Positions 562 through 53,573 of a stretch of DNA of 64,000 nt are shown in pieces; position 1 is the stretch's first letter; each line of letters begins with the position of its first letter. The stretch comes from an uncultured Methanotrichaceae archaeon (lineage in GTDB: Archaea > Halobacteriota > Methanosarcinia > Methanotrichales > Methanotrichaceae): NCBI GenBank assembly GCA_964462795.1, contig CAYWZG010000001.1:3197-67196 (forward strand). Direction: 5' to 3'. The notes beneath the pieces are model-generated. The model made no database searches and was not told the DNA's origin. It worked only from the letters and a program-made list of their open reading frames with translations. The position numbers and the translations under genes were made by a program.

Positions 562-565
562 CACC

Positions 566-4524: not shown

Positions 4525-5939
4525 ACGTGAAATCCTTAACATTTATTTTAGTTGCTATGTGCCTCATCAACTGCGCTCTTTGTGCTGAGGGACCACCGCC
4601 AAATAATGGCGGCGATTCTAGCAGCAGTCACGGAGGCAAGAAGATCGTGAAACTGGATCTAGACGATCTCGTAGGAAACTTTGAGAAATGGAAGAAAGAA
4701 GATCCAAAGCAGTTCGATTATATGAAAAAACTGCTTCACATACCCTTTGAACCTTCAGGGAATTACAGTACGCCAACGGTCTTGATATATTATCCTTATA
4801 ACAACACCAACATCACCCGAAACGAGAAGCTCAAAATGATTGCTTGGGTTAAAAATGACAACCCAATCGAGGTGAGATCTAACATATACCTCCAATTGGA
4901 GGCAAAAGGCCCAGGCGAAAAGAACTTCAGCGCGGTGAGTTCGCAAAGGGTCGTACTTTCCAACGAGTACAGCGAAGATAGCAACGCCAGCATGAGAGAT
5001 TGGTCTGACATCACGCCATTCCTCGATTCAAAAGAGACCGGGAACGTATCTTTTAGGATATGGTTCAACGACATGCACCGCACATATTACACCAACACCA
5101 TGTACAACAAATCTTACCGCTCAGGCGATTTTTACAGCGAGCTGAACCTGAACCTGATCAACACGCCACCTGAGATTGATGAGGATTGCATCAAGGTCTC
5201 GCCGGACCAGGCAAGGTACAACGATCCCATAAAGTACGAGGCATGTTTCTTCGATTCGGAAGGGGACATGGTGAACGTGACGCTCCACGTCTTCGATGAG
5301 TTGGGCAACGAGCATAAGAACGCAACCCAGATAATTAAATCCGGGAAAAACGTGACATTTACCGCGAGCGAATACGGATTCTTTGGGGAAGAAGATGCAG
5401 GAAAGAACTTCACATACAGTTATTCATACGACGATGGGCTCAACGGCAGCGTAACGAAGACCATGCCGGGGCCAAGCCTCCTATCGTCTCCAAAAATATA
5501 CACCTCCAACCAAAATGTGACAGCAGAGGATAATAACCAGTACTGGTGGCAAAGCTACACGTTCAGCATCAAGGTGAAGAATCCTGAAGTGAATAACTTG
5601 AGGATCGATCTTTACACCGACACGCCAGCTCATGGTGGAAAACATCAAGTGTCAAAGTGTATCAACGCCTCTAAAGAGTCTGAAGAAGCAGAGGACGTGA
5701 GCTTCACTCTCAAACCCTTCGAGGTTTCAGATGCTGGCCAGCCCTTTACATATTACTTTACTTATTCTGCACCTGATCAAGCCTCTAGATCGGAATCTGA
5801 CCATGAAGCAGGGGGCGTCATCAACCCCAGGTTGGTGAAGTATCCGATACATTCGGGCGTGATGGTGGCAAACCTTCTTTTCATCTTGCTCATCTCCCTT
5901 GTGGCAGGCGTCGTGATCGAGAGGAGGTTGTATAGATGA
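4521..5939 (+). CDS. Secreted repeat-domain protein with a C-terminal TM anchor (472 aa), function unknown
   Basis: Signal peptide (LTFILVAMCLINCALCAEG). Very many N-x-S/T sequons. C-terminal TM (VMVANLLFILLISLVAGVVI) plus ERRLYR. ATGA overlaps at both ends. Confidence 0.8.
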   Translation: MNVKSLTFILVAMCLINCALCAEGPPPNNGGDSSSSHGGKKIVKLDLDDLVGNFEKWKKEDPKQFDYMKKLLHIPFEPSGNYSTPTVLIYYPYNNTNITRNEKLKMIAWVKNDNPIEVRSNIYLQLEAKGPGEKNFSAVSSQRVVLSNEYSEDSNASMRDWSDITPFLDSKETGNVSFRIWFNDMHRTYYTNTMYNKSYRSGDFYSELNLNLINTPPEIDEDCIKVSPDQARYNDPIKYEACFFDSEGDMVNVTLHVFDELGNEHKNATQIIKSGKNVTFTASEYGFFGEEDAGKNFTYSYSYDDGLNGSVTKTMPGPSLLSSPKIYTSNQNVTAEDNNQYWWQSYTFSIKVKNPEVNNLRIDLYTDTPAHGGKHQVSKCINASKESEEAEDVSFTLKPFEVSDAGQPFTYYFTYSAPDQASRSESDHEAGGVINPRLVKYPIHSGVMVANLLFILLISLVAGVVIERRLYR

Positions 5940-6631
5940 ACGCAATCGCCGTGAACGTAACTGCAGCGTCTCCGATTTCGTTGGTGGATATTCCACCTAC
6001 AGACGTGCTGTCGAACTTTTTATCAGGGCCTCTCGCCAGCATATCTTCCAACGGGTTCTTGGGAGTGGGCCTCTTCGCCTTCATTCTGGCCTTGGGATTG
6101 GTATTGCATAAATTGAACATGATGAGGACCTATAAGCGGGTGGTCTCAACTTCAGATGGGCTTGAGATATCTGAAGAGAGCCTCAGTGAGGAGATGTTCT
6201 CTCGTCAGGGTTCCAACTTCAATGCCGCTGCTGTGGGCGCCTGGATTTTCCTGTTCGTTGCCTTCGCCTACTTTTACTTCTTAACACCAAGCTTGATCCC
6301 TAAGTACAACTATTTCCAGGTGCCTTCTCTTGCCTCAAGCCCCATAGGGTTCTTCCTATTCGGATTTCTTGTGTTGTTGCTGACCGGCACGGCTTCGGCT
6401 TTTCTTCCAAGGGTGTTCTACAGTTATTACCAAGTATCGAAGAATGAAAAGATGGCCATAATGCTCACAATCCCGCTCCTGGCAGTCTCCATAATAATAT
6501 CGGTTTATCTAGGTACAATATGCCCTGCACAGGAGGTCAACCTGAGGACTGTGGCCTTTTTTGCCCTTTTCGTATCTCAGATCGCGTTGTTGTGGCCGGT
6601 TTACCTTGACACCTTGGAGGGAGTTCGATGA
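5936..6631 (+). CDS. Polytopic membrane protein (about 5 TM, 231 aa), function unknown
   Basis: Five hydrophobic segments of about 20 aa. ATGA overlaps with both neighbours. Confidence 0.75.
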   Translation: MNAIAVNVTAASPISLVDIPPTDVLSNFLSGPLASISSNGFLGVGLFAFILALGLVLHKLNMMRTYKRVVSTSDGLEISEESLSEEMFSRQGSNFNAAAVGAWIFLFVAFAYFYFLTPSLIPKYNYFQVPSLASSPIGFFLFGFLVLLLTGTASAFLPRVFYSYYQVSKNEKMAIMLTIPLLAVSIIISVYLGTICPAQEVNLRTVAFFALFVSQIALLWPVYLDTLEGVR

Positions 6632-8166
6632 GACTTTGTATCGTGGGAATTGGAGGATGTGGCGGACACCTGGCAGAACATTTCCTCAAGAACGAGGACG
6701 TCACCGTATTGAAGAAATCTCTGGGCCGTCACGTGTCATTCGGTAGCGTAAAAGGGCTATGGCTCGAAGCTGACGTCCAAGAAACCAACAACCAAGATTT
6801 CTTTGGGTCTATTGAAAGAGGCAAGTATCCTGGCTATTTCATACCACACGACGTCATAAAATCCGATTCCAAGGCGTCAAGAGCGGTCCAGGATATCTAC
6901 GGGTACGATATAAAGAAACAGGGGTTCATGAGGCAGGCCGAGTTCTTGAAAGCAGTCTTTGAAATATTCGACACTGACGAAGTGGTAAAGAGCGCGGCCC
7001 TTTCTGAATGCGAGTCGACAAACCCAATCTTGAGGAGGGCATGGGACCATATCCGCCCCTGTACCACCCTTGCCGGTGCTGAGAATAACAACAAGGCATC
7101 TGAACTGTGCGATGGGATACTCTTCTTGATATCTCTTGGCGGAGGGACTGGAACTGGTTTTGTCAACCCGATCACAGGATACATCCGAGGCGAGAGAAGC
7201 GCATATCCTGCATTTGTCCTGGCGGTGCTAACCGAGGAGGGAGTAGATCCGCAGCAGAGGGCTAAAGAGGCAAAGAGGGATATGGGCGCCATGATCTCTC
7301 TTTACGACCTCATCACCAAGAAGTCTGGGATAGGGGTTGATGGCGTGATTTTGGTGGATAACCAAATAATGATAGAGAAGTTTGGTCAGGATTATCCAGC
7401 TATCGATCAGTACATCTACCAGGCCATGAAGCCTTTTGTGGCGGGACACCATTATCCAGGAGAAGATCCGCCAAGCTTGGCCATGCGAGAGAAGTTCCTC
7501 GAAGGTTTGCCGAGCCCTCCGATTCTGGTTCCATGTTACTACCGAATGAAACGGCGCAACGATCCTGAAGACGAGTTAGTGAAAAGAGCGCTCAGCGAAG
7601 AAGGTCAGCTCTTTAGGTGTGACCCAAAGATGGCGGAGAGAGCTTATGTCTTTACGAGGGGGTTCATGGAATTTGACGAGATCGTGAACGCCGTTGCCAA
7701 ATACACTGGTCTACCTAAAGATAGGATCGAGCCCTGGAGGAAGCTTGGTGAGAATAAGTGGGACGAGGTCCTGATATTGCTCAGAAACCCTTACGGTGGC
7801 AAAGATAAGGCATATGAGGACAAACTCACGTTGGAGTACCGCCTCCACAGGACTTTGAGGATGGCTCTCAAGTACATGGACGATCCTGAGAGCAAATTGA
7901 TTCCGGAAGGCATGCCCGATAAGACCAGAGACGCTCTGGATGATTACTTTTATGGCAAAACTGGAATCAGGAATGAGTTCAAGCAGTCTTTAACCAGGAT
8001 CGAGAAGGGCGAAAAGCCCTTTTTCCTCCATGAAAGAAACATATTCGAGGATAAATCCGAACAGGGTTTTGGAAACAATACGAATCATGAAACCCTTCCG
8101 GATGACGACAAGATACGCAAGATCGTGATGGAAGAGATGGCCAAGATATTGGGTGAGCGGGCTTAA
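6628..8166 (+). CDS. Divergent tubulin/FtsZ-superfamily GTPase (512 aa)
   Basis: N-terminal IVGIGGCGG (T1-like GxGxxG, aa 5-13). GGGTGTG at aa 171-177 (nt 7138-7158) matches the tubulin signature [SAG]GGTG[SA]G. VDNQ lies downstream. No signal peptide or TM segment. Confidence 0.7.
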   Translation: MRLCIVGIGGCGGHLAEHFLKNEDVTVLKKSLGRHVSFGSVKGLWLEADVQETNNQDFFGSIERGKYPGYFIPHDVIKSDSKASRAVQDIYGYDIKKQGFMRQAEFLKAVFEIFDTDEVVKSAALSECESTNPILRRAWDHIRPCTTLAGAENNNKASELCDGILFLISLGGGTGTGFVNPITGYIRGERSAYPAFVLAVLTEEGVDPQQRAKEAKRDMGAMISLYDLITKKSGIGVDGVILVDNQIMIEKFGQDYPAIDQYIYQAMKPFVAGHHYPGEDPPSLAMREKFLEGLPSPPILVPCYYRMKRRNDPEDELVKRALSEEGQLFRCDPKMAERAYVFTRGFMEFDEIVNAVAKYTGLPKDRIEPWRKLGENKWDEVLILLRNPYGGKDKAYEDKLTLEYRLHRTLRMALKYMDDPESKLIPEGMPDKTRDALDDYFYGKTGIRNEFKQSLTRIEKGEKPFFLHERNIFEDKSEQGFGNNTNHETLPDDDKIRKIVMEEMAKILGERA

Positions 8167-8200
8167 GCCCGACTTTGCCCACCTTGCTTCATATTCCACT

Positions 8201-8638
8201 TCACATATACAGCCGTTTCCACATTAAAACAGCGTCTTTTCCGCGCCCGTAGTAGTTTTCCAGGCGCACTGCCTCTTTGTACCCAAGCTGAGAATAGAGC
8301 GCCAAAGCAGCACTATTTTCGACAGAAACTTCGAGCTGAACCGCCTTTGCACCGGCAGCGAGTAACTCTTGCTCCAAAGATTCTATCAAAGCAAAGCCAG
8401 CACCTCTGCCGCGGTTCAGCGGATGAACATCCAGGGTGATCACTTTTCCCCAATCGCCGCTCACAGCCCCCATCACGAATCCCAGGATCTTGCCCTCTTC
8501 TGCCACCAGGGCGATGCCCGTTCTCAGGAAGAATGAGAGCATGTCTTCAGAGAAGGCTACTTGGGGCGCAAAAGAAATACTCTCGATTGAAAGGATCGAG
8601 GGCAAGTCCCCATCTTTTGCCCTCCGAACTCTCATCAC
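8201..8638 (-). CDS. rimI: GNAT-family N-acetyltransferase (RimI-like)
   Basis: 145 aa. Acetyl-CoA binding motif RGRGAG, followed by a typical GNAT C-terminal half (LEVSVENSAALALYSQLGY). Confidence 0.7.
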   Translation of the reverse strand: MMRVRRAKDGDLPSILSIESISFAPQVAFSEDMLSFFLRTGIALVAEEGKILGFVMGAVSGDWGKVITLDVHPLNRGRGAGFALIESLEQELLAAGAKAVQLEVSVENSAALALYSQLGYKEAVRLENYYGRGKDAVLMWKRLYM

Positions 8639-9012
8639 TTCTCAGATACCTGCCTGACCACGTCGGTGTAAGCCCCAAACACCGAAGGTATGTCGACGGT
8701 TCCCACAACGTCCACAATGCCCACCGCTGCGATCACCGATCCGGCTTTGTCCTTGATGGGCGCAACAGAGACCGGGACGTCTTTGTAAGCGCCACCTTTC
8801 GGCACCGTTCTGATGGCCTTCCCAGTCCTTATCACCTCTTCCAGAACAGGGCCAGAATATTCCACGTCGAGAACTTTGCCGCCTTCCACTCGAACGCCTG
8901 GGGCTTTTGCGCTCTTCATGGTTATGGGAAGGCCCAATATCTGGTTGATCGCCACAGCCAGGGGTGCAAGATCTTCTGATCCCGAATTCTCGGATATTAC
9001 CAGCTCAGCCAT
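8635..9012 (-). CDS. Conserved hypothetical cytoplasmic protein (125 aa)
   Basis: Intact ORF with a 4-bp overlap with the downstream GNAT gene. I recognise no motif with confidence. Confidence 0.5.
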   Translation of the reverse strand: MAELVISENSGSEDLAPLAVAINQILGLPITMKSAKAPGVRVEGGKVLDVEYSGPVLEEVIRTGKAIRTVPKGGAYKDVPVSVAPIKDKAGSVIAAVGIVDVVGTVDIPSVFGAYTDVVRQVSEK

Positions 9013-9170
9013 GTGACCTTTTCAGGCTCTAATTGTTGATATAGTCTCCCTTCAGCGCCGTTCAATTTTGGCAGCCTTTGGCCCAAGTTCAAGCCTTTGG
9101 CACCTGCTCTAAGTGCGGGGCTTATTCTCCGCTTAACCTGACGCCTTCAAATTTTCAGGGCAGATCTTTT

Positions 9171-10400
9171 TCAGTATCGGTGGAGAAACCTTGCCTGAAA
9201 TCCATGGTACTTGGCAAACCCTTCGGCGTCCCGCTGGCTCAAAGTCTTGCTGTTGAAAGAGACCATTTCCTGATCATAGAGGGCGTCAGGCGACTTTCTC
9301 CCAACAGAAACGGCGCTGCCGCAGTAAAGTTTCATCTTCACAACGCCATTGACCCTTTCTTGGCTCTGATCTACAAAAGCGCAAAGATCTGCATAGAGCG
9401 GATCATTCACGAGGCCCATGTAAGCAAGCTCCGACCAAGCTTCATCCACCGCAGACTTGAACCGAAGCTCAGCTCTCGATAGGACCAGGCGTTCGAGATC
9501 CTGATGAGCGTTCAAGAGCACTGTTGCGGCAGGATGCTCGTAGTTCTCGCGAGCCTTTAGGCCCAATACCCGGTCTTCGATCATATCGGTCCTTCCAACA
9601 CCATGTTCACCTGCGATCTGGTTTAGCTTCGTTATGAGCTCCATACCACCTATCTTCTTGCCGTCCAGCGAGACTGGAACTCCCTTTTCAAACCCGATCT
9701 CCACGATCCTTGCGGGAAGGGCCCTTTCAGGCGACTTGGTCCAAGAGTAGATCTCCTCTGGAGGTTCGTAGAACGGCTCTTCCAGAAGGCCGCCTTCTAT
9801 GCTTCTTGACCAGAGGTTTTCATCAATGCTCCAAGGCTTTTCTTTGGTCACTGGAACATCTATTCCATGATCTCTTGCGTAATCAATCTCCCATTCCCTG
9901 CTTAGATCCATATCGCGCATGGGTGCGATCACTTCCATATCGGTAGCCCTAAAGATGGCTTCGAACCTTAGCTGATCGTTACCCCTGCCTGTGCAACCAT
10001 GAGCCAGAGCCTTTGAGCCCAAATCTCTTGCGATCTCCACAGTTTTTCTTGCGATAAGGGGCCTTGCGATGGCAGTTCCGAGGACATATCCTTCGAAAGA
10101 CCCGTTCGCCTTGATGGAAGGGAATATGTAATCCTGAATGAACTCTTCCTTCGCATCGATCACGTAATGCTCATCGCTTAGCGCCTCAGCTCTTTCGTTT
10201 CCTCTCGCGATGTCTTCACTTGGTTGGCCCACGTCTGTAAGAACTGTTATGACTTTATCAAACCCATAACTCTCTCGCAGAATGGGTATGCAGACCGACG
10301 TGTCAAGGCCGCCGGAATAAGCAAGCACAATGATTTTGGACAAACTAACATCACCAAAAACGTACTCGACAGACCAGTTATTTGAACTCTGCGCCACCAC
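9171..10400 (-). CDS. argG: Argininosuccinate synthase
   Basis: [11 protein letters not shown]-loop and full-length similarity pattern to ArgG. The true start may be the TTG at 10343, which would give [12 protein letters not shown]. Confidence 0.9.
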
Positions 10401-10443
10401 TCATGCGATAACTCTATAACTTCTCCGCCAGTATTGGACGGTA

Positions 10444-11538
10444 ATGATCCCCTTATTGAACACCATCGCGCTCAAAGTGGACTACGACGAGGATCGTAGG
10501 GAACTTCAGGCCCGAGGGGCTATCGGTATGCTGGTTCAACCGGCCCTCAACAGAATGAACCAGAGGTTGGCCGAAGAGAAACCCGCCCTGGTCCGAGATG
10601 AAGACATAGTTGCCTCAACCTGGCTTCCGCCCATTCCAAGCGACCCGTTCAAAAGGCTCGTCCTCAGCGAGGGCAAGATCGCCATAGGCAGGTTCATTCC
10701 TCAGACTGTGAGCATCGAGGTGACAGGAGAGGGCAGATCTGGGCAGGCCCACTCTTTGCCCCCCAAAAGTGACAACGCGATGGAAACTGAGGACATACTC
10801 CGGGTCATAGACGAGGCCTTGGACCTTGGGGCCAGCATAATAACCTTCACCGAAGGCGACCCCTTGTTAAGAGAAGACATCGCAGACCTGATCCGTCACG
10901 TAGATCCACAAAAGGCGGTAGTCGAGTGCTTCACCCGCGGCTTTAACATGACTCCAGAAAAGGCGCTAGAGCTGAAACGGGCAGGGCTATACAACCTTCT
11001 TGTTGGAATCTACAGCACAGATCCTGAAGAGCACGATCGAGTTCGAGGGATGGAAGGGGCATATCAAAAGGCGATAGAGGCCATCGAGATGGGGCTTGAA
11101 GCAGGCCTCTTGGTAACGATGTCCACCCATGTCAACGGTGGCCAAGTATCTCAGATACCGAATCTTTACAACCTTGCCGCGAACCTCAAAGTCCACGAGT
11201 TTTCGATATGGGAAGGGATCCCAAAGACGCACCAAGAGAAGATCACCCAGATCGAAAGGGAGACGATTCTCAGGTTCTACAAGAGGATCAACAAGACGTC
11301 TGGTGGGCCAAGGGTCTTTGCCAACACTTACTTCGAAGGAGAGATGATGGGCTGCATGGCGGGAAGAAGATGGCTTCACGTCTGCTTAGATGGAACTGTG
11401 AGAGCTTGTCCCTACCTGGAAGATGGCTACGGCAACGTGTTAAATAGCTCGCTCAAGGATATTTGGAAACATATAAGAAAATCAACTAATTTCAATCAGT
11501 TCAAAACAAATTGTCCTGCCCAAGAACTCTACATCTAA
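10444..11538 (+). CDS. Radical-SAM-fold / SPASM-like protein lacking the CxxxCxxC cluster motif
   Basis: The core has radical-SAM architecture (ITFTEGDPLLREDI, LLVGIYSTD, C-terminal GCMAGRRWLHVCLDGTVRACPY). At the cluster position it reads TGEGRSGQAHS instead of TxxCNxxCxxC. Confidence 0.6.
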   Translation: MIPLLNTIALKVDYDEDRRELQARGAIGMLVQPALNRMNQRLAEEKPALVRDEDIVASTWLPPIPSDPFKRLVLSEGKIAIGRFIPQTVSIEVTGEGRSGQAHSLPPKSDNAMETEDILRVIDEALDLGASIITFTEGDPLLREDIADLIRHVDPQKAVVECFTRGFNMTPEKALELKRAGLYNLLVGIYSTDPEEHDRVRGMEGAYQKAIEAIEMGLEAGLLVTMSTHVNGGQVSQIPNLYNLAANLKVHEFSIWEGIPKTHQEKITQIERETILRFYKRINKTSGGPRVFANTYFEGEMMGCMAGRRWLHVCLDGTVRACPYLEDGYGNVLNSSLKDIWKHIRKSTNFNQFKTNCPAQELYI

Positions 11539-13471: not shown

Positions 13472-13613
13472 TAGTGTTTAACGATACCTTTCGGACAACT
13501 GTCGAACTCTCATGAGTTCGACATTTTGACCTATTCGTATCGTTAAGCACTAATCTTTCGAGAACCAACTAGTTTCATCTAACCGGTCCCCGACTATAAT
13601 TGGTTCTCGAACA
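13472..13613 (+). repeat. Intergenic repeat, full copy (A+B) with a displaced extra right arm of module B
   Basis: TAGTGTTTAACGATACCTTTCGGACAACTGTCGAACTCTCATGAGTTCGACA...GTATCGTTAAGCACTAATCTTTCGAGAACCAACTAG...GACTATAATTGGTTCTCGA. Confidence 0.9.
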
Positions 13614-14121: not shown

Positions 14122-14213
14122 TATAGTGCTTAAAGATACCTTTCGGATAAGTGTCGAACTCTCATGAGTTCAACATTTTTAAAATTATCCCAAAGGTACT
14201 GTCAAACACTATA
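14122..14213 (+). repeat. Intergenic repeat, module A only (diverged right arm)
   Basis: TATAGTGCTTAAAGATACCTTTCGGATAAGTGTCGAACTCTCATGAGTTCAACA...CCCAAAGGTACTGTCAAACACTATA. Confidence 0.8.
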
Positions 14214-26580: not shown

Positions 26581-28014
26581 ATGCATATCACTGGTACACC
26601 ACTTAGAGCGATCTTCGTAGCAGTTCTAATATTAATATTAGTCTTGCCCACCTTCTGCCTGATCGAAAGTGCGTCTGCCGCTCCGATTAAGTACACGCTA
26701 GAAGGTTATACGCTAGATCCCAAGGAGAAATGGACTACCGGTGCCATAAAGGGATGGTCAGAAGGTGAATGCATACCTTTTCGGTATACTGTGACCAATT
26801 CTGGATCAAATCCAGAGTCATTACACCTGAATATAATATTCGATAGCGAGAAAGATGGAATAGTAGGGGTCGAAAGTTTCGAAGCCTTTCAGATTCCTGC
26901 AGGCACAATCGAGGGTCCTATCTTCGACGGTGAGGTAAACGGTTGGTACACTTGGGATGTAATCGTGCCCAGGGGTTCGACCTATATATTGGAGTGGTGT
27001 GCCCAACTTGGATTCGAGTCGGGGCTTTGGCCTGGGGCGAGCATCCATGTGAGCGCCAAGAATGGCGGAAGCATGGACGTTCCGATAATGGTTGGCGACC
27101 TTGAAACTCCTGACGTTTACGTCACAAAAACCGCAAGCTCAAGCTGTGGCGAAATCCGTTATACGATCCAATACGGCAATTGGGGTAAAATTGATCAGAC
27201 CAGAACCGTTCTTGTCGCCTATTATGATGCAGAACAGGTTTTTGTGATAGATTCAAGCGGCGGCCTTGATGATGGAAACTCTATTGCATGGCAGATAGGC
27301 GATCTCGCTTCTGGAACTGTCGAATCGTTAAGTTACGTGATGGCGATAAAATATCAAGTCCTCCCAGGTACATCGATCGCTTCAAACGCATTCATATCAG
27401 GCGATTTGGCAGAACGCTCCACTAAAGACAACTCTTGCGAAGTGGTGGCTTATGCAAAGCTGCTTCCTCGAGTGAATGCAGGACTCGAAAAGACGATCTT
27501 AGAGGGCGAATCGACTGGATTAGGGGGCAATCCAATTGTCGTTGGAAGTTTTGGAAACTACACAACCCTCTGGACTCCAGCATATGGCCTCGATGATCCT
27601 GCAAAACCAAACCCTACGGCATCACCAGGCAAGACTACAACTTACGTCGTGAAGGTGACGGATGCAAATGGATGCAGCAACCAAGATGAAGTGATGGTGA
27701 ATGTATTGTCAAATCCGTTCTGCCAAATCGAAGGACCAGGGTCGATCTGTGAGAACAGTCATGTTGCAACCTTTTATTATGTGGGCGAAGACACAAGCAT
27801 GGCAGATTTCGGGTTCATATGGTCGATCGATGGTGTCGTGGTCGGAAACGACGAGGCGATCGACGTAGATTTCTCACATTTTGGTTTTGGTCAACACAGC
27901 TTGATCTTGGACGTCTTTAAGACGTATCCTTCCGGAGAAGTGACCTATAACCGCTGTGTTCACCCGATAACTTATATCGAATCGCCAAAAGTCTCTATAA
28001 CCGTCAGTGGATGA
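26581..28014 (+). CDS. Secreted surface protein (477 aa) with a DUF11-like repeat and Cys-containing Ig/PKD-like C-terminal domains
   Basis: Signal peptide. DVYVTKTASSSCGEIRYTIQYGN...WQIGDLASG is DUF11-like. The C-terminal about 100 aa are paralogous to the C-terminus of the 40352-41011 product. Confidence 0.75.
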   Translation: MHITGTPLRAIFVAVLILILVLPTFCLIESASAAPIKYTLEGYTLDPKEKWTTGAIKGWSEGECIPFRYTVTNSGSNPESLHLNIIFDSEKDGIVGVESFEAFQIPAGTIEGPIFDGEVNGWYTWDVIVPRGSTYILEWCAQLGFESGLWPGASIHVSAKNGGSMDVPIMVGDLETPDVYVTKTASSSCGEIRYTIQYGNWGKIDQTRTVLVAYYDAEQVFVIDSSGGLDDGNSIAWQIGDLASGTVESLSYVMAIKYQVLPGTSIASNAFISGDLAERSTKDNSCEVVAYAKLLPRVNAGLEKTILEGESTGLGGNPIVVGSFGNYTTLWTPAYGLDDPAKPNPTASPGKTTTYVVKVTDANGCSNQDEVMVNVLSNPFCQIEGPGSICENSHVATFYYVGEDTSMADFGFIWSIDGVVVGNDEAIDVDFSHFGFGQHSLILDVFKTYPSGEVTYNRCVHPITYIESPKVSITVSG

Positions 28015-28032: not shown

Positions 28033-31000
28033 ATGGCAACCCACTCGACCTGTGATGTCTCAAAGACTTGGACAATCCTTGCATTGTCGGTCCTTTTAGC
28101 ACCGGTCTTTTGTCTGCAAGTTTTGGCCTTTGAGGATCCGATATACTCTGGAGACATCTGTACTTTTGAGCCGGTTGACTCGTCAGCGAACTGGACCTAC
28201 AGCTGGAACGCCTCGGATGGCCACCCCTCCAGTTCAGACTCGAGAGTTTTTGAGTGGACCGCCCCAATGGTTTTCTACACGTCCAAGTCAATTCTCATCA
28301 CCCTTATAGTCTCTAACAGTTATTGTCCCAGCACAGATGAGATGGCGGTGACGGTACACCCAAAGCCCGGCCTTGAGGTACGCAAATGGCTTGAATCGCC
28401 AGATAGCGTGCCAAAGGTGGGTGACGTTCTATCCTACAAGATCAAGATAATCAATGTCGGCCAGACAAAAGTCGTGTCGATCCCTCTGGTCGATGACTAT
28501 CCCGAGGACGTGATGATCCCCCTTGGTTCAGATATTCCATGGGACGAAGATGACGGAACGAAACTTCGTTGGAACAATCTCGTAGATGACCCCCTCGATC
28601 TGGGCGAAGCTGTGGTCATTTCAGCGGACTTTCGTGTCATCTCTTCAAGCTCTGAGGCGGTGGTCAATTTCGCCAGGATCGAGGATGCAAAGGACGATAT
28701 TGGAAATTCGATTTCACCCATTTTTGACGAAGAAACAGTCGAGAAAGTAGACGTATTTGATGACCTTGGGCCGGATCGAACCTGTGAATACGCCACCATC
28801 CACTTCTTTGCGGCATCGAGGGTCGAAAGTTGCAAGTGGAATGCGTTCGACTTGACCGGTTCAGAGGTTGGAGGCTTTAACGATACCAGAACATCCAAGG
28901 TCGAGTGGACTCCAACCGACTCTGGTGAGTATAACATCACAGTCCTGATGAGCGATCACGATTGGACCTTGCTACGTCATCAGACCGTTTCGGTTTCGCC
29001 TCGGCCCAATTGCACCATAGTTGGAGAAAATGTAGTCTGTAACGACACTTGGACCACTTTTCACGCAATTGTAGATCCAGATTGTTCTTATCGGTGGGAC
29101 GCCTCGGCCGGGTCCTTTCGGGCAGACGATTTGCCATCTGTAGAGTGGCGATCTCCAGAAGTTCCAGGCGAGTACCAGATCAACTTGACCGTTGTTTCAA
29201 AGGGGGGTTGCTCCTGTAGCGGCACTCATAGAGTTGAAGTTGAACCGTGTGCGTCCAAGATCAGTCTTGTAAAGGACTGCATATATGAAGATCCCACAAG
29301 GGTGGGTGACACTGTAGTTTATACTTACTCGGTGACAAACGCTGGAGATCTCTCACTTGGGTCAGTCAACCTCACAGACGTCCAGGAGTGGGGTCCTGGC
29401 TGCGATCCCCGTTATGTAGGTGGCGATTCTAACGAAGACGATCTTCTTGATCCTGATGAATCCTGGAGGTACGAATGCCTTTACGTCGTGCCAAACCCCG
29501 CCGATTATGAGATTCTATCCATAATGTCCACAGCTAACCCTCTGGCAAGGCAGATCCAAAGGTTGAGCAGGACGACCTCGAGGCTCAAGATCAAGATAGC
29601 TAATTTGATCGACGCACGAGAAAGGTTTGACTTTCCCAGGGCCGAACTTGAAATGTCGCAACAAATTGTCCTTGGCAAGCGTGTTACGTTTTACAACTAC
29701 ACTAACTCTTACTCTAACGAGCGCCTGAGTTTGATGAAGGACGAGCACGATATTATCATCAAATCCGAATATTATAATCCCATATCTGACACCGTCTTGA
29801 CATCCGTTTATGCACCTTCGGGCGAATCTGTATCAGATTTATATATATCGAAGCAGACGAAAGAAAGCCTGCGCCTCGAATACGACAAGCCCATGCCAGG
29901 ATACTGCACCTACACCATCATCGATTATGGTACTGGGGACTCTCTTATTTCCATCGTTGATGCCACCGGCGCGACCATCGAGCGAAATTACAGAAGAGTC
30001 CCTGGATACCTGGTTTACGAAAAGGAGATCTGGCTCCACAATACCGCCACCGTCACAGCTCAGGATCTTCGCGGAAAAACGGTCTTGGATTGGGATGTCT
30101 ACTCGCTAAAAGTCGAGCCGCCTCTGCCAATCCTCAAAATAACGAAGATTGCAGATCCCGATCCGGTAAATCCTGGGGAACTTCTCACTTACACAATCGA
30201 GTATTCAAACCAGGGGATGGTCGAGGCTCACGACGTGGTGATTGTGGAAACTTATGACGAGAACGTGAGCTTCGTCTCTTCGAGTTCAGAACCAGATTTC
30301 ATCTCAGGATCTGAGCGCAACAGATGGTCTCTTGGCGACTTGATGCAAGGAGCTTTTGGGACCATAACGATAGATGTTCTGGTCGATCCCGGTCTTGAAA
30401 CGGGACATGTGTTGGAAAATCTGGTCAACATCTCGTGCAGTGAGAACGTGACCGAAAACGCCAGCGTCATAACTCGCATCCTTGCACCCAATATCAAGAT
30501 CTGGAAAGAAGATTCGCCAGATCCCGTAGATGTTGGGTCTTTGCTGAACTACACCATCATATATGAAAACCTTGGAGATGCTGCGGCTCACAATGTCGAG
30601 ATCAAAGAGAGTTACGATGCGAACGTGAGCTTTGTCGCCTCAAATCCAGAACCCGATGAGGGAACAAACGATCACTGGACCCTCGGAAACTTATCCTCTA
30701 AAGAGAAAGGCACAGTCTTCATCACAGTTCAGGTTCGTCCTCAGACGGGAAATGGAACTATTCTCAACAACACAGCAAGAATCACCTGCAACGAGGGTTT
30801 CTTTGAGGAAGCAAAGGCCAACACAACGGTGGGCGCGCCCATCCTCAAGGTGAAAAAGGTCGCCCCATCGGATTTGGTCCGACCGGGATCTTGGCTGAAT
30901 TACACGATAACCGTAGTCAACGAGGGGACGGCGAACGCAACAAACGTCATTGTGACCGACGTAATAGATCCGAACCTAGATTTCAATATCACGAATTCAT

Positions 31001-33966
31001 CTCCCAATTATAGTCACAACGACCGTACATACATGTGGCATTATGAGAGTTTGGGTCCTGAAGAGAGCATATCCATCAAAATAAATACCACAGTCCTCGA
31101 CAATACTTCACCCAACTCCTCAGTCATATACAACCGCTACAAGGCAAATTGCACTCAGTCAGAGGGCGTCTTCTCGACTCTGGTCACCTGGGTGATCTCT
31201 TCTCTTTGGATCGATAAGATTGCGGAAAAATCGACATACGAAACCGCTGAACAGGTAATTTATCATATAACATACGGAACCGATCTGAATCCCACGGCCT
31301 CGAACGTTACCATTGTGGACCACTTTCCACAGGATCTGGTCTATGTGAGTGCCACTCCCTCGCCGGACACCATCCGCGACGGCGTTTTGATCTGGAACAT
31401 GGGGCCGCTAGAAGAAAATCAGACCGGATCGATCGAATTATTGTTTGACATTCTGAAACGGCCTGATGTTCGATTCGAGGAAACGTCATCTATTTCTGGT
31501 GAGGGTTTTGTATCACTGCGAAAACACTTATCAACCACTCGAGATTCCTACAAACTGATAAATCGAGTCAACATCACAGGTTGTTACACTGGAACTAACA
31601 ACTCCTTAACGTCTCACGAGGATTCTGCGAGCATCACGGTAACTGACATGGCAGGGGCCACGATTTCGACCCTTGAACATGGAAGCGGGTATTACGAAGA
31701 AGAGGTCTTATCCAAGCTCAACACCACAAACGGAAGCATACAGATGGATAAGCAGGTCTTTGCTAGCCATAAACCTACGAGCTTTTCGTTGCCCGGAACG
31801 GACGTGAGCTATGACTCTCTTTGGACTGACTGGACCTGTGCAAAGAACCTTTTTCAAGGAGAGTCCGTCGCCGAAAGTTACCGCTACATGGAATTCATCG
31901 AGAAGAACAGTTCTTTTCTGGTGGACGAAAACGAGACAGCTTACGCGTCTGACGCCGAGTTTAGCGGTGGGATCGCCCAGATCGGGTACCTAAAGCGTGA
32001 TCAGACGAGCGGAAAGACCGTGGTTGAACTGAGCGATCGATATCATGGCGACTTCAGGGCAGAAACCCATATCGAAAGCGGGGGATCCTCAGAAAAGTCC
32101 GTGAAAGGTATCGGTTTTGTGGCGTCTGACAAACGAGTCGATGACAAGGTTGGATCTTTTGAACATGGAAGTGGCTATTACGAATCTGAGGAGAAGGTCT
32201 CGTCCAGCACGATCCAAAAAGATGTCAGCATGGCTCACATCCCAGAAGAGGTACGCCTTGGAAGCTTTGGAGTCAACTATTCATCAAGGTGGGGAGAAGG
32301 GATCTGGGCAAAGGACAAAGATTCATCGATAGGTGAAAGGATAAGCTTTGCAACTCGGATTGATAAAGAAAGCGAGATCACACCTGGCTCGATGGCGCTA
32401 TTTGGCGATTTTGAAGGATATGGAGAAATCTTGGCAGTTTCGAAATATCCGGACGGGGAACGAGCGAGGGTCGACCAGGTGTTCCATGGGGATTATACCA
32501 TTGCCACTTCGGTTGCCATATATAAAACGCCGAAATATCTGGAACCTCACATCAACCTGACCAAGACCGTATCAAGAGAGGACGAAACGATCAAGTTCAA
32601 CATAAACGTGACCAACGATGGGAACAAACCGTTGGGACCGATCAACCTTTCTGACCACTTGCCAGAAGGCATGACATTTATCAAGTCGAACCCAAAGCCC
32701 GAAGTCGTGGGCGAGGTCGTCATATGGACGATTTCCTCAATACCGATAGGCGGGATGCAGACGGTAGAGCTTTGGGCCAGTGAGACCGACTCGAAAGGCA
32801 CTTTGACGAATAAGGCGAACGCAACCGCATATTATGATGGCGGAGTGGTTACTGCGGATTGTTCTTGTAAGTTTGATTCTGCCAACTGGCTTTCGATCCC
32901 CACTATAACTATGGCAAATGTTAGTGGAGCTGAAAGTCCCTCCGATGAAACAACATCAGATTCTGCAAAAATTTCGGCGAGGACAAGGCCGGTATTGCTG
33001 AACTTGATGATAGATGCTGAACTTTATCCCGTGGCTGCCAACGAGACCATCGAAGATAGTATCGAGATCGAAGCAGTCTCACTCATAGATATGCTAAACG
33101 AGATCGATCCAGAAGAGCTGAACGTCACAATTTATTCTACAAGCGATTTCGTCTCAGCAAGAAGCGCAAACGCATCTTACAAGCTCTATGCAACCAGGAT
33201 AGGTGCCAAAGATAACCACGAGATGGCATTCCATGGAATGACCACTGACGAGCTTCTCGGAACTATGACCTATGGTGTGCAGTATCCGCTCCTCATAAAA
33301 GCAAAACGGCTCGTCGAAGAGGCCTACATATGCGAGGGCAGGAAGATAGAAGCAAAGGGCTTTAGGCCTCAGCAGTTCAATCAGAGTGAGACCACCTACA
33401 AGATCCTGGACAAGATGGGCTTTGAATATGATTCAGGGTATCTAGCAGGTCTGATCTACCTTCCAGATCATGAGAACGATACCTGGCCCTACCCGGCAGA
33501 AGGGCACCGTTTCTATGCAGTTCCGGTGAGCACACATCTGTTTTCAGGTGAGCTTGTACCCTTATCTGATAGGTTCGCAAAAGAGGAGCTTGGCCTTACA
33601 GGATCTCAGTGGTACGACCTTCTCATCGCCGAGTTTGAGGAATGTTCCAAAGAAGGCGACCCCATGGTGGTTATATTCCACAATTTCGTATACGGAACCG
33701 ACGAAGAGTATCAAAAGGCTTATACAGGTTTCGTAGAGTACGCCATCTCAAAAAGGGCGGATTTCATTTCAACCATGGAGCTGGTCGAGATCGCGAAAGA
33801 TCCTTCAAAAGCCGGATATCTTTCAATCACGGATTTCGATGACGAAGAGCAGATCCATCAAACTCTTCATGATTACGGAGCGTGGAAGCCTCCCGAATGG
33901 AACATGACCTGCGAGGAGATGGGTTGTTATGATGGCATCTGCGAGTACTACGACAACCTGGAATAA
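28033..33966 (+). CDS. Giant secreted adhesin-like protein (1977 aa) with at least 7 DUF11-type repeats, PKD-like domains and a C-terminal polysaccharide-deacetylase-like domain
   Basis: Signal peptide. DUF11-type repeats such as ITKIADPDPVNPGELLTYTIEYSNQG...RWSLGDL. The C-terminal about 300 aa carry HEMAFHG, KGFRPQQF...GFEYDSGY and VVIFHNF, which fit the deacetylase pattern. Confidence 0.85.
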   Translation: MATHSTCDVSKTWTILALSVLLAPVFCLQVLAFEDPIYSGDICTFEPVDSSANWTYSWNASDGHPSSSDSRVFEWTAPMVFYTSKSILITLIVSNSYCPSTDEMAVTVHPKPGLEVRKWLESPDSVPKVGDVLSYKIKIINVGQTKVVSIPLVDDYPEDVMIPLGSDIPWDEDDGTKLRWNNLVDDPLDLGEAVVISADFRVISSSSEAVVNFARIEDAKDDIGNSISPIFDEETVEKVDVFDDLGPDRTCEYATIHFFAASRVESCKWNAFDLTGSEVGGFNDTRTSKVEWTPTDSGEYNITVLMSDHDWTLLRHQTVSVSPRPNCTIVGENVVCNDTWTTFHAIVDPDCSYRWDASAGSFRADDLPSVEWRSPEVPGEYQINLTVVSKGGCSCSGTHRVEVEPCASKISLVKDCIYEDPTRVGDTVVYTYSVTNAGDLSLGSVNLTDVQEWGPGCDPRYVGGDSNEDDLLDPDESWRYECLYVVPNPADYEILSIMSTANPLARQIQRLSRTTSRLKIKIANLIDARERFDFPRAELEMSQQIVLGKRVTFYNYTNSYSNERLSLMKDEHDIIIKSEYYNPISDTVLTSVYAPSGESVSDLYISKQTKESLRLEYDKPMPGYCTYTIIDYGTGDSLISIVDATGATIERNYRRVPGYLVYEKEIWLHNTATVTAQDLRGKTVLDWDVYSLKVEPPLPILKITKIADPDPVNPGELLTYTIEYSNQGMVEAHDVVIVETYDENVSFVSSSSEPDFISGSERNRWSLGDLMQGAFGTITIDVLVDPGLETGHVLENLVNISCSENVTENASVITRILAPNIKIWKEDSPDPVDVGSLLNYTIIYENLGDAAAHNVEIKESYDANVSFVASNPEPDEGTNDHWTLGNLSSKEKGTVFITVQVRPQTGNGTILNNTARITCNEGFFEEAKANTTVGAPILKVKKVAPSDLVRPGSWLNYTITVVNEGTANATNVIVTDVIDPNLDFNITNSSPNYSHNDRTYMWHYESLGPEESISIKINTTVLDNTSPNSSVIYNRYKANCTQSEGVFSTLVTWVISSLWIDKIAEKSTYETAEQVIYHITYGTDLNPTASNVTIVDHFPQDLVYVSATPSPDTIRDGVLIWNMGPLEENQTGSIELLFDILKRPDVRFEETSSISGEGFVSLRKHLSTTRDSYKLINRVNITGCYTGTNNSLTSHEDSASITVTDMAGATISTLEHGSGYYEEEVLSKLNTTNGSIQMDKQVFASHKPTSFSLPGTDVSYDSLWTDWTCAKNLFQGESVAESYRYMEFIEKNSSFLVDENETAYASDAEFSGGIAQIGYLKRDQTSGKTVVELSDRYHGDFRAETHIESGGSSEKSVKGIGFVASDKRVDDKVGSFEHGSGYYESEEKVSSSTIQKDVSMAHIPEEVRLGSFGVNYSSRWGEGIWAKDKDSSIGERISFATRIDKESEITPGSMALFGDFEGYGEILAVSKYPDGERARVDQVFHGDYTIATSVAIYKTPKYLEPHINLTKTVSREDETIKFNINVTNDGNKPLGPINLSDHLPEGMTFIKSNPKPEVVGEVVIWTISSIPIGGMQTVELWASETDSKGTLTNKANATAYYDGGVVTADCSCKFDSANWLSIPTITMANVSGAESPSDETTSDSAKISARTRPVLLNLMIDAELYPVAANETIEDSIEIEAVSLIDMLNEIDPEELNVTIYSTSDFVSARSANASYKLYATRIGAKDNHEMAFHGMTTDELLGTMTYGVQYPLLIKAKRLVEEAYICEGRKIEAKGFRPQQFNQSETTYKILDKMGFEYDSGYLAGLIYLPDHENDTWPYPAEGHRFYAVPVSTHLFSGELVPLSDRFAKEELGLTGSQWYDLLIAEFEECSKEGDPMVVIFHNFVYGTDEEYQKAYTGFVEYAISKRADFISTMELVEIAKDPSKAGYLSITDFDDEEQIHQTLHDYGAWKPPEWNMTCEEMGCYDGICEYYDNLE

Positions 33967-33983
33967 TCTCACTTGTCAACAGA

Positions 33984-34111
33984 TATAGCGCTTAACGATA
34001 CCTTTCGGACAAATCTCTAACTCGTGATAGTTTGAGATTTGTCCCATTCGTATCGTTAAGCACTAATCTTTCGAGAACCGATTAGTCTCATCTGATCGGT
34101 TCTTGACTATA
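33984..34111 (+). repeat. Intergenic repeat, full copy (A+B)
   Basis: TATAGCGCTTAACGATACCTTTCGGACAAATCTCTAACTCGTGATAGTTTGAGATTT...GTATCGTTAAGCACTAATCTTTCGAGAACCGATTAG...GATCGGTTCTTGACTATA. It begins 18 nt after the giant gene's stop. Confidence 0.9.
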
Positions 34112-34169
34112 ATCAACAAACACAAATCACGTCACAACTCTTACATATTATGGAAACTTACCTTTCCAT

Positions 34170-34532
34170 GTGTCCAGGTCTGGTGCTCTCAAGCCTTTGA
34201 ACCAAGAGGTGCAGAAACGCTTACAGGAATCGCTATCAGAACGAGATCAGATAATCTACCTCGTCCTTCAGGATTCTGGTCTTCCCATAGTCGATTTCTT
34301 GGAGGCAAAGGTCACCGACTTGGATTTGGAGATGGGCATTCTTCGCCTCAAATCGAAAGAAGTCACTCTCACTTCGGCGACCACAACAGAGCTTAAAAGG
34401 CTTTTGAACCAGTTTTCAGGCCGAGTCTACCTCTTCGAGGGCAGATGCGGAAAGCCGGTGACGCCCAAGTGGATCCGTTGCGTTTTGGAGCCATCGGCCC
34501 GCAAACTGGGGGCAGGCGAGATCATCATTTGA
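34170..34532 (+). pseudogene. Tyrosine-recombinase (integrase)-like remnant, truncated and degenerate
   Basis: The spacing pattern LSERDQIIYLVLQDSGLPIVDFLEAKVTDLDLEMGILRL...VYLFEGRCGKPVTPKWI resembles the first half of a Xer/phage-integrase catalytic domain, but the GLR arginine is Pro. The HxxR and Tyr regions are missing. A shifted frame just downstream reads GPHNCTTHL. Confidence 0.4.
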
Positions 34533-39690: not shown

Positions 39691-40040
39691 ATCAACTGCC
39701 CCTCAGAAATATTGTCTCTTCTGTTTTGGTCGCGAAATATTCTTCTGATGCTATTTGGATCGTAAACATATGATCCCGCGAGGATTGGGCTAATATTTGA
39801 TAAGGCAATCGGCTGCTTTGATCAAGTCATCCAAAACTGTTGATTTGATTAGCTGAGTTAGGCAAGATTAAGTTGTACAGTTATAAGATTACTAGTATGT
39901 AGCCATTGGTCATCAGTTAAGACAAAAATCGCAATGTAGCAATGATCTTGGTAGCAAATCCGATGAGATCGACCGGATTAAAAAAGGTATATCGGACCCG
40001 TTTCCGATTTCTCAAAGATAAGAGCTTCCGTGTTGCGGAA

Positions 40041-40105
40041 GTATAATAGTCGAGAACCAATTAGATGAAACTAATTGGTTCTCGCCAGAATAGCGTTTAA
40101 CGATA
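40041..40105 (-). repeat. Partial intergenic repeat, reverse orientation (module B plus proximal arm of module A)
   Basis: TATAATAGTCGAGAACCAATTAGATGAAACTAATTGGTTCTCGCCAGAATAGCGTTTAACGATAC. Confidence 0.85.
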
Positions 40106-40351
40106 CTTAAAGAAAAAAGAGCAAATTGAATCTTTGATGATCATGGTCATCGCACTTTTGGTATTCAACTATACAAAACGAAAATTGCGTGAGAATTTAG
40201 AAAACCTACAAAAAGGCCTACAATGAAATGGCATTTCTTCCCCTTCACTGGTGTTACAAAAGTGCTCGCCAAAACACACTAATTTTGTGGATAAATAAAA
40301 ATATGCCAGGCGTTCTGCCTGGCTCATATCATAGAACAATATCGCTTCACG

Positions 40352-41558: not shown

Positions 41559-41664
41559 ATATAATCGAGAACCAATTAGAAACTAATTGGTTCTCACCAG
41601 AATAGTGCTATAACGATACGAATAGGTCAGATCTCAAACTCTTACGTTTTTGATATTTGTCCTA
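41559..41664 (-). repeat. Intergenic repeat, reverse orientation, distal arm of module A truncated
   Basis: TATAATCGAGAACCAATTAGAAACTAATTGGTTCTCACCAGAATAGTGCTATAACGATACGAATAGGTCAGATCTCAAACTCTTACG... Confidence 0.85.
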
Positions 41665-41735: not shown

Positions 41736-42653
41736 ATGATACATAAAAAATTATTATTTATAGGATTCGTGATATGCATTGTACCTTTGATCCTTTCCGG
41801 TGGTGTGTTAGGATCGAACGAATCAGTTGTCCTTAACGTTATGATAGATGCCGAGCTTTGTCCATGGGACTTGAACGTGACCCCTGAAGAAAAGGTAGGG
41901 ATAGAAGCAAGGTCTTTGATAGATATGCTCAACAAGATTGATCCCGACGAGCTGAACGTCACAATTTATTCTACAAGCGATTTCGTCTCAGCAAGAAGCG
42001 CAAACGCATCTTACAAGCTCTATGCAACCAGGATAGGTGCCAAAGATAACCACGAGATGGCATTCCATGGAATGACCACTGACGAGCTTCTCGGAACTAT
42101 GACCTATGGTGTGCAGTATCCGCTCCTCATAAAAGCAAAACGGCTCGTCGAAGAGGCCTACATATGCGAGGGCAGGAAGATAGAAGCAAAGGGCTTTAGG
42201 CCTCAGCGATTCAATCAGAGTAAGACCACCTACAAAATCCTTGACAAGATGGGCTTTGAATACGATTCAGGGTATCAGGCAGGTCTGATCTACCTTCCAG
42301 ACCACAAGAACGATACCTGGCCCTACCCAATGGAAGGATATGGATTCTATGCAGTTCCTGTGAGCACTCATGAATTCTCTGATGAGCTGGTACCCATATC
42401 CGACCGGTTCGCAAAAGAGGAGCTTGGAATCAACGGATCTCAGTGGTACGACCTTCTCATTGCAGAGTTTGAGGAGTGTTCCAGAAAAGGCGATCCCATG
42501 GTGGTTATATTTCACAATTTCGTATACGGAACCGACGAAGAGTACCAGAACGCGTATACAGAATTCGTAAATTATGCCATCTCAAAAGGGGCTGACTTTG
42601 TCTCAACCATGAAGCTTGTCGAAATAATGAAAACCGAAAACGAAGCGTCCTAA
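41736..42653 (+). CDS. Secreted polysaccharide-deacetylase-like protein, stand-alone paralogue of the C-terminal domain of the 1977-aa protein
   Basis: I moved the start to MIHKKLLFIGFVICIVPLILSGG (signal peptide). The motifs HEMAFHG, KGFRPQRF...GFEYDSGY and VVIFHNF are present. An 86-aa block is identical to the giant protein. Confidence 0.8.
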   Translation: MIHKKLLFIGFVICIVPLILSGGVLGSNESVVLNVMIDAELCPWDLNVTPEEKVGIEARSLIDMLNKIDPDELNVTIYSTSDFVSARSANASYKLYATRIGAKDNHEMAFHGMTTDELLGTMTYGVQYPLLIKAKRLVEEAYICEGRKIEAKGFRPQRFNQSKTTYKILDKMGFEYDSGYQAGLIYLPDHKNDTWPYPMEGYGFYAVPVSTHEFSDELVPISDRFAKEELGINGSQWYDLLIAEFEECSRKGDPMVVIFHNFVYGTDEEYQNAYTEFVNYAISKGADFVSTMKLVEIMKTENEAS

Positions 42654-53470: not shown

Positions 53471-53556
53471 ATAAGCACTTTAACGATAAGATCCGACCAA
53501 TTCGGAAACTCGTAAGATTTTCCGAATTGTCCGGAACGTATCGCCAAGCACTATAA
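53471..53556 (+). repeat. Intergenic repeat, module A only, with a different but still complementary inner stem
   Basis: AAGCACTTTAACGATAAG...CAATTCGGAAA-CTCGTAAGAT-TTTCCGAATTG...GTATCGCCAAGCACTATA. Lies 18 nt downstream of the cdhB stop. Confidence 0.8.
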
Positions 53557-53573
53557 AATGAAGAAGTGGTGAT

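Follow-up and report, generated by a model that had tools for sequence, protein, structure and literature searches.

Two copies of a CE4/NodB-like domain in one locus

The stretch of DNA analyzed here, 64,000 nucleotides of contig CAYWZG010000001.1 from an uncultured Methanotrichaceae archaeon (hereafter termed the window), carries two genes that share a domain resembling CE4/NodB polysaccharide deacetylases. One copy of this domain forms the C-terminal portion of a giant surface protein, and the other is encoded by a stand-alone gene located further downstream. Within the domain, a tract of 259 bp is identical in the two genes, and the origin of this identity is the subject of the present study. 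The source lineage is also reflected in the relatives of the window genes, which come from Methanotrichaceae / Methanothrix. The features needed to follow the argument are listed below.

26581..28014, + strand: gene for a 477-amino-acid DUF11 protein directly upstream of the giant gene (context only, outside the exchange)
28033..33966, + strand: giant surface-protein gene, 1977 amino acids (open reading frame, Pfam matches, orthologue in L004)
32992..33816, + strand: CE4/NodB-like domain of the giant gene (ungapped 825-bp homology; fold assigned by homology with the modeled stand-alone paralogue)
33115..33373, + strand: tract copy 1, in the giant gene, 86 codons (exact match; permutation, Sawyer-type and synonymous-divergence tests)
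41736..42653, + strand: stand-alone paralogue, 305 amino acids (signal peptide, then CE4/NodB-like domain, ending in ...EAS and a stop codon)
41826..42650, + strand: region of the stand-alone gene homologous to the giant-gene domain (pairwise alignment)
41949..42207, + strand: tract copy 2, in the stand-alone gene (exact match)

The giant protein begins with a hydrophobic, signal-like segment at its N terminus, and it further has PKD, CLIPPER_2, CLIPPER and DUF7619 domains and ends with the CE4/NodB-like domain and a tail of ~50 amino acids that is acidic and rich in Cys. Its Pfam matches are to DUF11 (CLIPPER; 2.5e-66, five stretches), DUF7507 (CLIPPER_2; 5e-29, two stretches), DUF7619 and PKD. 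The linker that precedes the CE4-like domain is rich in Ser, Thr and Asp. The protein is long, is predicted to be secreted, and carries tandem CLIPPER and CLIPPER_2 repeats. Bacterial and archaeal surface proteins that resemble fibrillar adhesins have been reported to share this architecture (PMC12617251). The name 'adhesin', which a first-pass annotation of this DNA had given to the gene, agrees with the architecture and in particular with the CLIPPER stalk, although architecture is also as far as the support for the name extends. No sorting-signal domain is present among the Pfam matches of the giant protein, and no search aimed at one was made.

The ATG start of the stand-alone gene is supported by its signal peptide, which is conserved in orthologues. 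Stand-alone orthologues of identical length, all with a homologous signal peptide, include P0002 (88% identity) as well as P0003 and P0004 (61-62%). The boundaries and lengths that the first-pass annotation had assigned to the two genes are right.

A tract of perfect identity between diverged paralogues

Positions 33115-33373 of the giant gene and 41949-42207 of the stand-alone gene match exactly over 259 bp, and this match extends by 0 bp to the left and by 0 bp to the right. The two copies reside 8.8 kb apart in direct orientation, and a repeat search of the whole 64-kb window did not find a third copy of the tract sequence. The tract is in frame, comprises 86 identical codons, and spans both HEMAFHG and KGFRPQ, which are putative CE4 motifs 2 and 3, respectively. 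An ungapped alignment of the homologous regions (32992-33816 and 41826-42650) spans 825 bp and contains 119 differences, none of which is located in the tract. Divergence of the paralogues amounts to 31% over the 117 bp upstream of the tract and to 15% over the 418 bp downstream.

These data bear out most of what had been described for this region, including the base-for-base identity with its quoted start and end strings, the shared block of 86 amino acids with HEMAFHG (as evident by in-frame translation), and the greater divergence on the upstream side. The two genes also continue to align downstream as had been stated, but the rate of difference there is somewhat higher than the earlier estimate of one position in eight to ten.

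When the 119 differences were re-placed at random 200,000 times, the longest identical run observed was 100 bp, and none of the replicates reached 259 bp. The analytic expectation for a run of this length is ~4e-16. Likewise, a Sawyer-type test that uses the 157 sites variable among four related sequences yields a concordant run of 25 sites, and 0 of 200,000 permutations reach this value.

Codons at which the two proteins have the same amino acid and at which synonymous change is possible were compared separately. Synonymous differences are present at 0 of 83 such codons in the tract, compared with 32 of 117 downstream and 11 of 24 upstream (tract versus downstream, Fisher p = 5e-9; probability of observing zero at the downstream rate, 3e-12). 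Because of these differences between the tract and its flanks, conservation of the protein is not enough to explain the tract. Nei-Gojobori estimates of synonymous divergence (dS) between the copies are 1.32 upstream, 0 in the tract and 0.73 downstream. The first-pass annotation had pointed out that synonymous divergence would speak against recombination if it were uniformly low across the alignment. What we find is a step from 1.32 to 0 to 0.73.

Relationships to orthologues change along the gene

Orthologues of each gene permit the history of the two copies to be examined separately. For the stand-alone gene, two Joint Genome Institute (JGI) metagenomes (L001 and L002) contribute an orthologue with 87% identity and with synteny on its upstream side. 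For the giant gene, an orthologue that is 91.5% identical over 2.7 kb is present in a Methanotrichaceae metagenome-assembled genome (L004). Within the tract, the number of positions that distinguish these relatives from the window is 20 for L001 and 16 for L004 (dS of 0.27-0.35). The codons affected include 14 synonymous and 5 non-synonymous changes for L001, and 12 synonymous and 4 non-synonymous changes for L004.

Site patterns among these four sequences shift at the tract. In the 117 bp upstream, 24 of the 39 variable sites are of the 'abba' type, in which the window giant gene agrees with L004 and the window stand-alone gene agrees with L001. The tract holds 11 sites of the 'aabb' type, wherein both window copies are unlike both relatives. 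Downstream of the tract the patterns form a mosaic, with 'abba' sites also present at 33504, 33660 and 33711, and in the last ~50 bp at the 3′ end the 'abba' type returns (seven sites at 33741-33789 versus one 'abab' site). Each window copy thus has flanks of the correct type on both sides, which argues against a path swap by the assembler. Neighbor-joining trees of gene segments from the window's clade agree with these site patterns, as the 5′ and 3′ ends pair by gene type and the core pairs by genome.

A block downstream of the tract deserves separate mention. At 42330-42474 (aligned with 33496-33640), dense substitutions are found only in the stand-alone gene of the window, and the giant gene, L001 and L004 agree with each other. 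Either the L001 stand-alone gene was converted by a giant-type copy, or the window copy was fed by an unseen third paralogue.

An independent tract in a second clade

Members of a second Methanothrix clade (clade B), with ~70% DNA identity, carry both genes on single contigs in L005, L008 and L009, and the giant gene only in L006 and L007. In the clade-B arrangement, the stand-alone gene is divergently oriented and is located upstream of a gene for a 503-amino-acid DUF11 protein and the giant gene. This DUF11 gene is the counterpart of the 477-amino-acid gene that precedes the giant gene in the window. Additional searches for giant-type relatives were less productive. A scan of metagenome proteins with a giant-domain pattern gave 114 pattern matches and no confirmed relative, a degenerate DNA pattern for HGMTTDELLG recovered only the clade-B giant genes of L006 and L007 and not the L001 and L002 samples, such that the population of L001 yielded no giant-gene contig, and a protein search with a giant-specific query returned proteins of stand-alone length only, without a giant orthologue.

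One clade-B representative, L008, has a tract of its own. Over 261 bp, at alignment columns 180-440, its giant-gene domain matches its stand-alone gene without a single difference. For comparison, the window tract occupies columns 124-382 of the same alignment. The L008 copies are located as follows.

L008 (ENA ERZ25073599 NODE_1870), ~506-766, - strand, and 8138-8398, + strand: tract copies in inverted orientation, absent in the sister sequence L005

The close relationship of L005 and L008 allows this second event to be resolved. These two sequences are 95.9% identical overall, and their giant-domain copies differ at only 1 of 840 positions, yet the longest identical run between the L005 paralogues is 67 bp. 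The L005 stand-alone gene differs from the giant gene at 22 sites that are identical between the two L008 genes, and for 16 of these 22 sites the stand-alone state is shared with the stand-alone gene of the more distant L009. From these 22 differences, with 16 of them polarized by L009, we conclude that the L008 giant gene was the donor and that its stand-alone gene was the recipient.

At its right end, the L008 tract coincides with the 67-bp identical block that was already present (columns 374-440). Therefore, observed tract lengths overstate the length of DNA that was copied. The position of this block at the tract end also fits initiation that is anchored by homology. Furthermore, because L008 derives from a separate assembly in which the copies are inverted, it is improbable that a single assembly artifact has recurred.

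Apart from the tract, L005 positions 1-10891 exhibit patchy divergence from L008, ranging from 0 to 75 differences per 300 bp. The region at 3599-4456 of L005 is hyper-divergent, and several stretches of at least 600 bp are identical. This patchiness suggests frequent allelic recombination in the population.

Evidence for concerted evolution of the domain core

Giant-type copies from both clades carry the same tail motif of ~50 amino acids (YGxWxxPxWNxTxxEMxC...EYY), which is lacking in the stand-alone type. Stand-alone copies from both clades, in turn, have homologous signal peptides, a length of exactly 305 amino acids, and the same ...EAS end. The shared tail, signal peptide, length and C-terminal end imply that both the fusion and the duplication predate the split between the clades. 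The paralogues within each genome are nevertheless 86-90% identical. Across both clades, the only amino acid columns that separate the two gene types are positions 2, 5, 12, 14, 16, 18, 29 and 270-272. Clade-specific columns number 65 and are spread over the whole domain, and a core of ~240 residues is without any type-specific residue. As judged from these alignments, this distribution indicates that the domain core has undergone partial concerted evolution.

The linkers of the giant proteins also differ in composition. Clade-B giant proteins (L005 at ~9900-10000, L009 and L006) have a poly-Glu linker, with up to ~14 Glu residues, just before the CE4-like domain.

Identity of the shared domain

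The relationship of the shared domain to CE4/NodB enzymes is not apparent from either window protein alone. No Pfam model, PF01522 included, matches the CE4-like domain of either protein even at E = 10, and a PDB sequence search with either protein gave no match. We therefore used an alignment of 31 family members as a profile, given that the single-sequence searches gave nothing. This profile matches the insect chitin deacetylase 5zns with E = 6e-6, wherein HEMAFH is aligned to HEIAVH, and it also matches a CE4 xylan esterase. Among the 31 family members, 14 individually match PF01522 (best E value of 9.8e-11).

Structure prediction is consistent with this assignment. An AlphaFold2 model of the stand-alone protein has a predicted local distance difference test (pLDDT) score of 90.7 and a predicted template modeling (pTM) score of 0.86. 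The top PDB matches of this model in a Foldseek search are all polysaccharide or chitin deacetylases and PuuE, with template modeling (TM) scores of 0.60-0.67, E values of ~1e-10 and a probability of 1.0. The predicted fold, a distorted beta/alpha barrel, is like that of CE4/NodB polysaccharide deacetylases (PF01522; PDB 3rxz, 5znt, 3qbu and PuuE 3cl6).

The window proteins differ from these enzymes in their lack of a Pfam match and in motif 2 (canonical HSxxH), where a Thr is aligned with the second of the two His residues. Candidate equivalents of the CE4 motifs TFDD, HSxxH, RxPY, DxxDW and LxH are MIDAE, HEMAFHG(MTT), FRPQ, NDTW and IFH, respectively. Given this Thr in motif 2, catalytic competence of the domain is putative. 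The description 'deacetylase-like' in the first-pass annotation is therefore right as far as fold and family profile are concerned, although neither window protein reaches a Pfam model with this domain by itself.

A further difference was noted at column 8 of the domain alignment. The stand-alone proteins of clade B (L005, L008 and L009) read MIAAD, whereas the giant-type domains and both window copies read MIDA(E/D). Hence, the candidate catalytic or metal-binding Asp of motif 1 is replaced by Ala in the clade-B free form, which may alter catalysis.

Probable gene conversion and competing explanations

The tract in the window very probably records an ectopic (inter-paralogue) gene conversion that took place recently. 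The first-pass annotation had favored recent non-reciprocal recombination over uniform purifying selection, and this preference is supported by the step in dS, by the changes that orthologues have accumulated, by the switch in topology along the gene, and by the L008 tract. In our best reading, the window event is the latest of many in this gene pair, of which two (window and L008) can be resolved.

Several observations weigh against this interpretation. The same-genome events that are resolved number two only, and the identity in the window is known from the assembly alone, such that an assembler or polisher could have smoothed a few true differences. With regard to direction, tract sites at which the relatives differ match L004 at nine positions and L001 at five, and these are interleaved, which favors neither window copy as the donor. 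L001 and L004 were recovered from separate samples, and they may represent different species. Finally, even the 5′ and 3′ DNA segments split first by clade when both clades are included in the trees (neighbor-joining with p-distances, 498-500 of 500 bootstraps). Because the DNA trees split in this manner, the claim of an ancient duplication rests on the architecture, the tail motif and the 10 type-specific protein columns.

Two of these points lead directly to alternatives. If the loci truly differ and the sequence of one copy had been written over the other during assembly or polishing, an identical tract could result. The contig is of the metagenome type, exact repeats longer than k are a difficulty in short-read assembly, and mis-mapped reads used in polishing can homogenize paralogues. 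However, we consider an artifact of this kind improbable. De Bruijn assemblers break or mis-join at repeats and do not create identity, and both flanks of each copy match the orthologue of the correct type. Had the tract been as divergent as its flanks (8-15%), reads would have mapped unambiguously and would not have been mis-recruited. The L008 tract comes from a separate assembly of the SPAdes style (NODE_ contig), in which the copies are inverted, and a path switch in that case would have had to occur on a shared stretch of only ~19 bp at the left edge, as judged from the unconverted L005. Moreover, the deep pattern of concerted evolution shows real exchange in this gene pair. The split of all DNA segments by clade would, in turn, be expected if each lineage had recently and independently duplicated all or part of the stand-alone gene onto its giant gene, and it is in keeping with this idea that the distant family members P0015 and P0024 are stand-alone genes with no giant neighbor within 10 kb. 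Yet the giant types of both clades share their junction context and the ~50-amino-acid tail, and type-specific residues at the N-terminal end of the domain are shared as well. A fresh copy would also be uniformly identical, rather than identical only in a 259-bp island between flanks with dS values of 0.7-1.3, which makes independent duplications extremely unlikely.

Other alternatives concern the function of the DNA rather than its history. The most conserved part of the protein, with the putative catalytic motifs, falls within the tract, and one might imagine an embedded RNA, a regulatory element or an overlapping gene that freezes 259 bases. This possibility is hardly credible, because the orthologues change mostly synonymously within the tract (16-20 substitutions, dS of 0.27-0.35), and nucleotide-level selection thus cannot explain the identity; constraint on the protein, for its part, cannot erase synonymous differences (0 of 83 versus 32 of 117). 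In addition, no Rfam element or tRNA is found in the 64-kb window. The presence of a large surface protein near a partial homologue, with short-patch transfers that recur in the same region in two clades, is also reminiscent of programmed cassette variation like that of pilE/pilS or vlsE, in which the stand-alone gene would act as a donor of new sequence for the enzymatic head of the surface protein. We judge this to be highly improbable. The stand-alone gene is not silent in appearance, but is an intact and conserved gene for a secreted 305-amino-acid protein with a signal peptide, and the 64-kb window holds one partner copy rather than an array. The only event whose direction is resolved ran from the giant gene to the stand-alone gene (L008). 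Lastly, the part exchanged is the most conserved one, and transfers therefore lower diversity.

A template/variable repeat pair of a diversity-generating retroelement was considered separately and rejected, since the identity is perfect rather than adenine-specific, and there is no reverse transcriptase among the neighbors scanned.

Repeats and other features near the two genes

The neighborhood of the two genes consists of ordinary chromosomal genes, including those for a geranylgeranyl-reductase-like flavoprotein, diphthamide synthase, QueC, DapB, DapA and ThiD/ThiN. Interspersed among the genes of the window is a family of palindromic intergenic repeats of ~130 nucleotides that resemble miniature inverted-repeat transposable elements (MITEs). 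At least 10 full or partial copies are present in the 64 kb, and two were located in L001.

568-700: MITE-like copy
1897-1976: MITE-like copy
13472-13604: MITE-like copy
14124-14179: MITE-like copy
33985-34117: MITE-like copy
40040-40171: MITE-like copy
41567-41662: MITE-like copy
53473-53560: MITE-like copy
59539-59676: MITE-like copy
62364-62501: MITE-like copy
L001, 410-518: MITE-like copy
L001, 1618-1755: MITE-like copy

Copies of this family reside 19 nucleotides past the stop codon of the giant gene and ~75 nucleotides before the start of the stand-alone gene. For the sequence at 33980-34120, the fold consists of two long hairpins (-65.4 kcal/mol, z = -11.5), and the family has no match in Rfam. 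The family is absent from the clade-B loci of L005-L009. MITE-like repeats as required drivers of the exchange were rejected on this basis, as conversion also occurs at clade-B loci.

Just after the repeat downstream of the giant gene, an open reading frame of 120 amino acids (34170-34532, + strand) resembles a tyrosine recombinase, with a PF00589 score of 21.9 bits that falls below the cutoff of 27.1. In L001, a sequence at 1850-1914 that is 94% identical to window positions 34150-34214 is found downstream of the stand-alone gene and a MITE-like copy. The placement of this recombinase-like sequence indicates a rearrangement between the relatives, with the MITE-like repeat at the breakpoint. 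The similarity of the L001 3′ flank to the region downstream of the window giant gene also raised the idea that L001 is a hybrid of stand-alone and giant genes formed by unequal crossing-over. This idea was rejected because L001 retains the 3′ end, stop codon and terminator of the stand-alone type, and the breakpoint lies beyond them at the MITE-like repeat.

A proposed route for exchange

The events that gave rise to the tract might be reconstructed as follows. Two old CE4/NodB-like paralogues would have been established, one fused to the 3′ end of a giant CLIPPER/DUF11 gene and the other free and secreted. A break or gap in one copy would then be repaired by homologous recombination with the other copy serving as the template, presumably beginning with RadA-dependent strand invasion and proceeding through either synthesis-dependent strand annealing or heteroduplex repair. 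Such a non-crossover outcome would copy a patch of 259 bp or less and would leave the flanks unexchanged. A crossover between the direct repeats, by comparison, would delete 8.8 kb including the diphthamide-synthase and QueC genes, and is probably selected against.

The same process may account for the distribution of differences along the domain. The core (approximately residues 30-269 of the aligned region) appears to have been homogenized repeatedly and independently across lineages, while the ends keep paralogue-specific sequence. Divergence of the ends probably blocks extension of the heteroduplex, and the ends also serve functions that differ between the gene types, with a signal peptide in one and a linker and tail in the other. 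Identity in the core would be long enough to start and extend a heteroduplex, such that homogenization of the core could be self-reinforcing and the ends could remain distinct.

It is tempting to speculate that this homogenization is kept by selection. The tethered and free forms of the putative CE4-like core might be held to the same substrate specificity, perhaps toward the cell's own envelope or sheath glycans, and together they could constitute a long-lived, domain-restricted co-evolution module across Methanotrichaceae in which exchange is favored around HEMAFHG...FRPQ. Both of the resolved events, in the window and in L008, cover this region. We regard this broader proposal as tentative and, at present, rather doubtful.

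Comparison with known systems

Gene conversion that homogenizes only the shared domain of differently built paralogues, and that has persisted for a long time, has been described for mtrA-1 and mtrA-2 of methanogens (2015, PMC4632066). This pair is the closest precedent, in that anciently duplicated, neighboring methanogen genes with differing architectures are also involved, and the shared domain alone is homogenized. The mtrA genes encode a methyltransferase subunit, whereas the domain described herein belongs to a putative CE4-like enzyme of the surface or secreted type in Methanotrichaceae. Moreover, the time depth is much shallower in our case (two clades with ~70% DNA identity), and a single fresh tract with base-level edges can be seen.

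Gene conversion among archaeal chaperonin subunits was reportedly noted by Archibald and Roger in 2002. Long-lasting, recurrent concerted evolution of prokaryotic paralogues has been surveyed more generally (Wang and Chen, 2018, PMC6053082). The surveyed and chaperonin examples resemble the pair in the window because paralogues within a genome are closer than orthologues and because part of the gene is converted. However, those examples are mostly subunits of the same complex or pathway, whereas here a tethered and a free form of an enzyme-like domain are involved.

With respect to mechanism, short-patch tracts are also said to form in Sulfolobus. Short-patch gene conversion and equalization of genome copies have been described for Haloferax volcanii (PMC11276520). 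In both organisms, as in the window, the archaeal recombination machinery copies short tracts by homology and without reciprocal exchange. Their exchanges are allelic or between chromosome copies and were observed experimentally, whereas the exchange in the window is ectopic, occurs between diverged paralogues, and is deduced from sequence alone. Our search for a prior description of this tethered and free gene pair found none. The pair is a new case in a new family and lineage, of a phenomenon that is already known, and it entails no new mechanism.

Implications

In an uncultivated lineage of acetoclastic methanogens, the tract exemplifies ectopic gene conversion at the resolution of single bases. 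We know of no genetic system that is available for these organisms. The tract implies that short-patch homologous recombination operates in this lineage between diverged repeats located 8.8 kb apart. There are also practical consequences for the analysis of these genomes. Trees constructed from this domain group sequences by genome and not by gene, which misleads orthology calls, and an exact repeat of 259 bp is a hazard for assembly and binning. For the biology of the organism, matched tethered and free CE4-like domains may share a substrate, and the pair would thereby offer a lead on the surface-glycan biology of Methanothrix.

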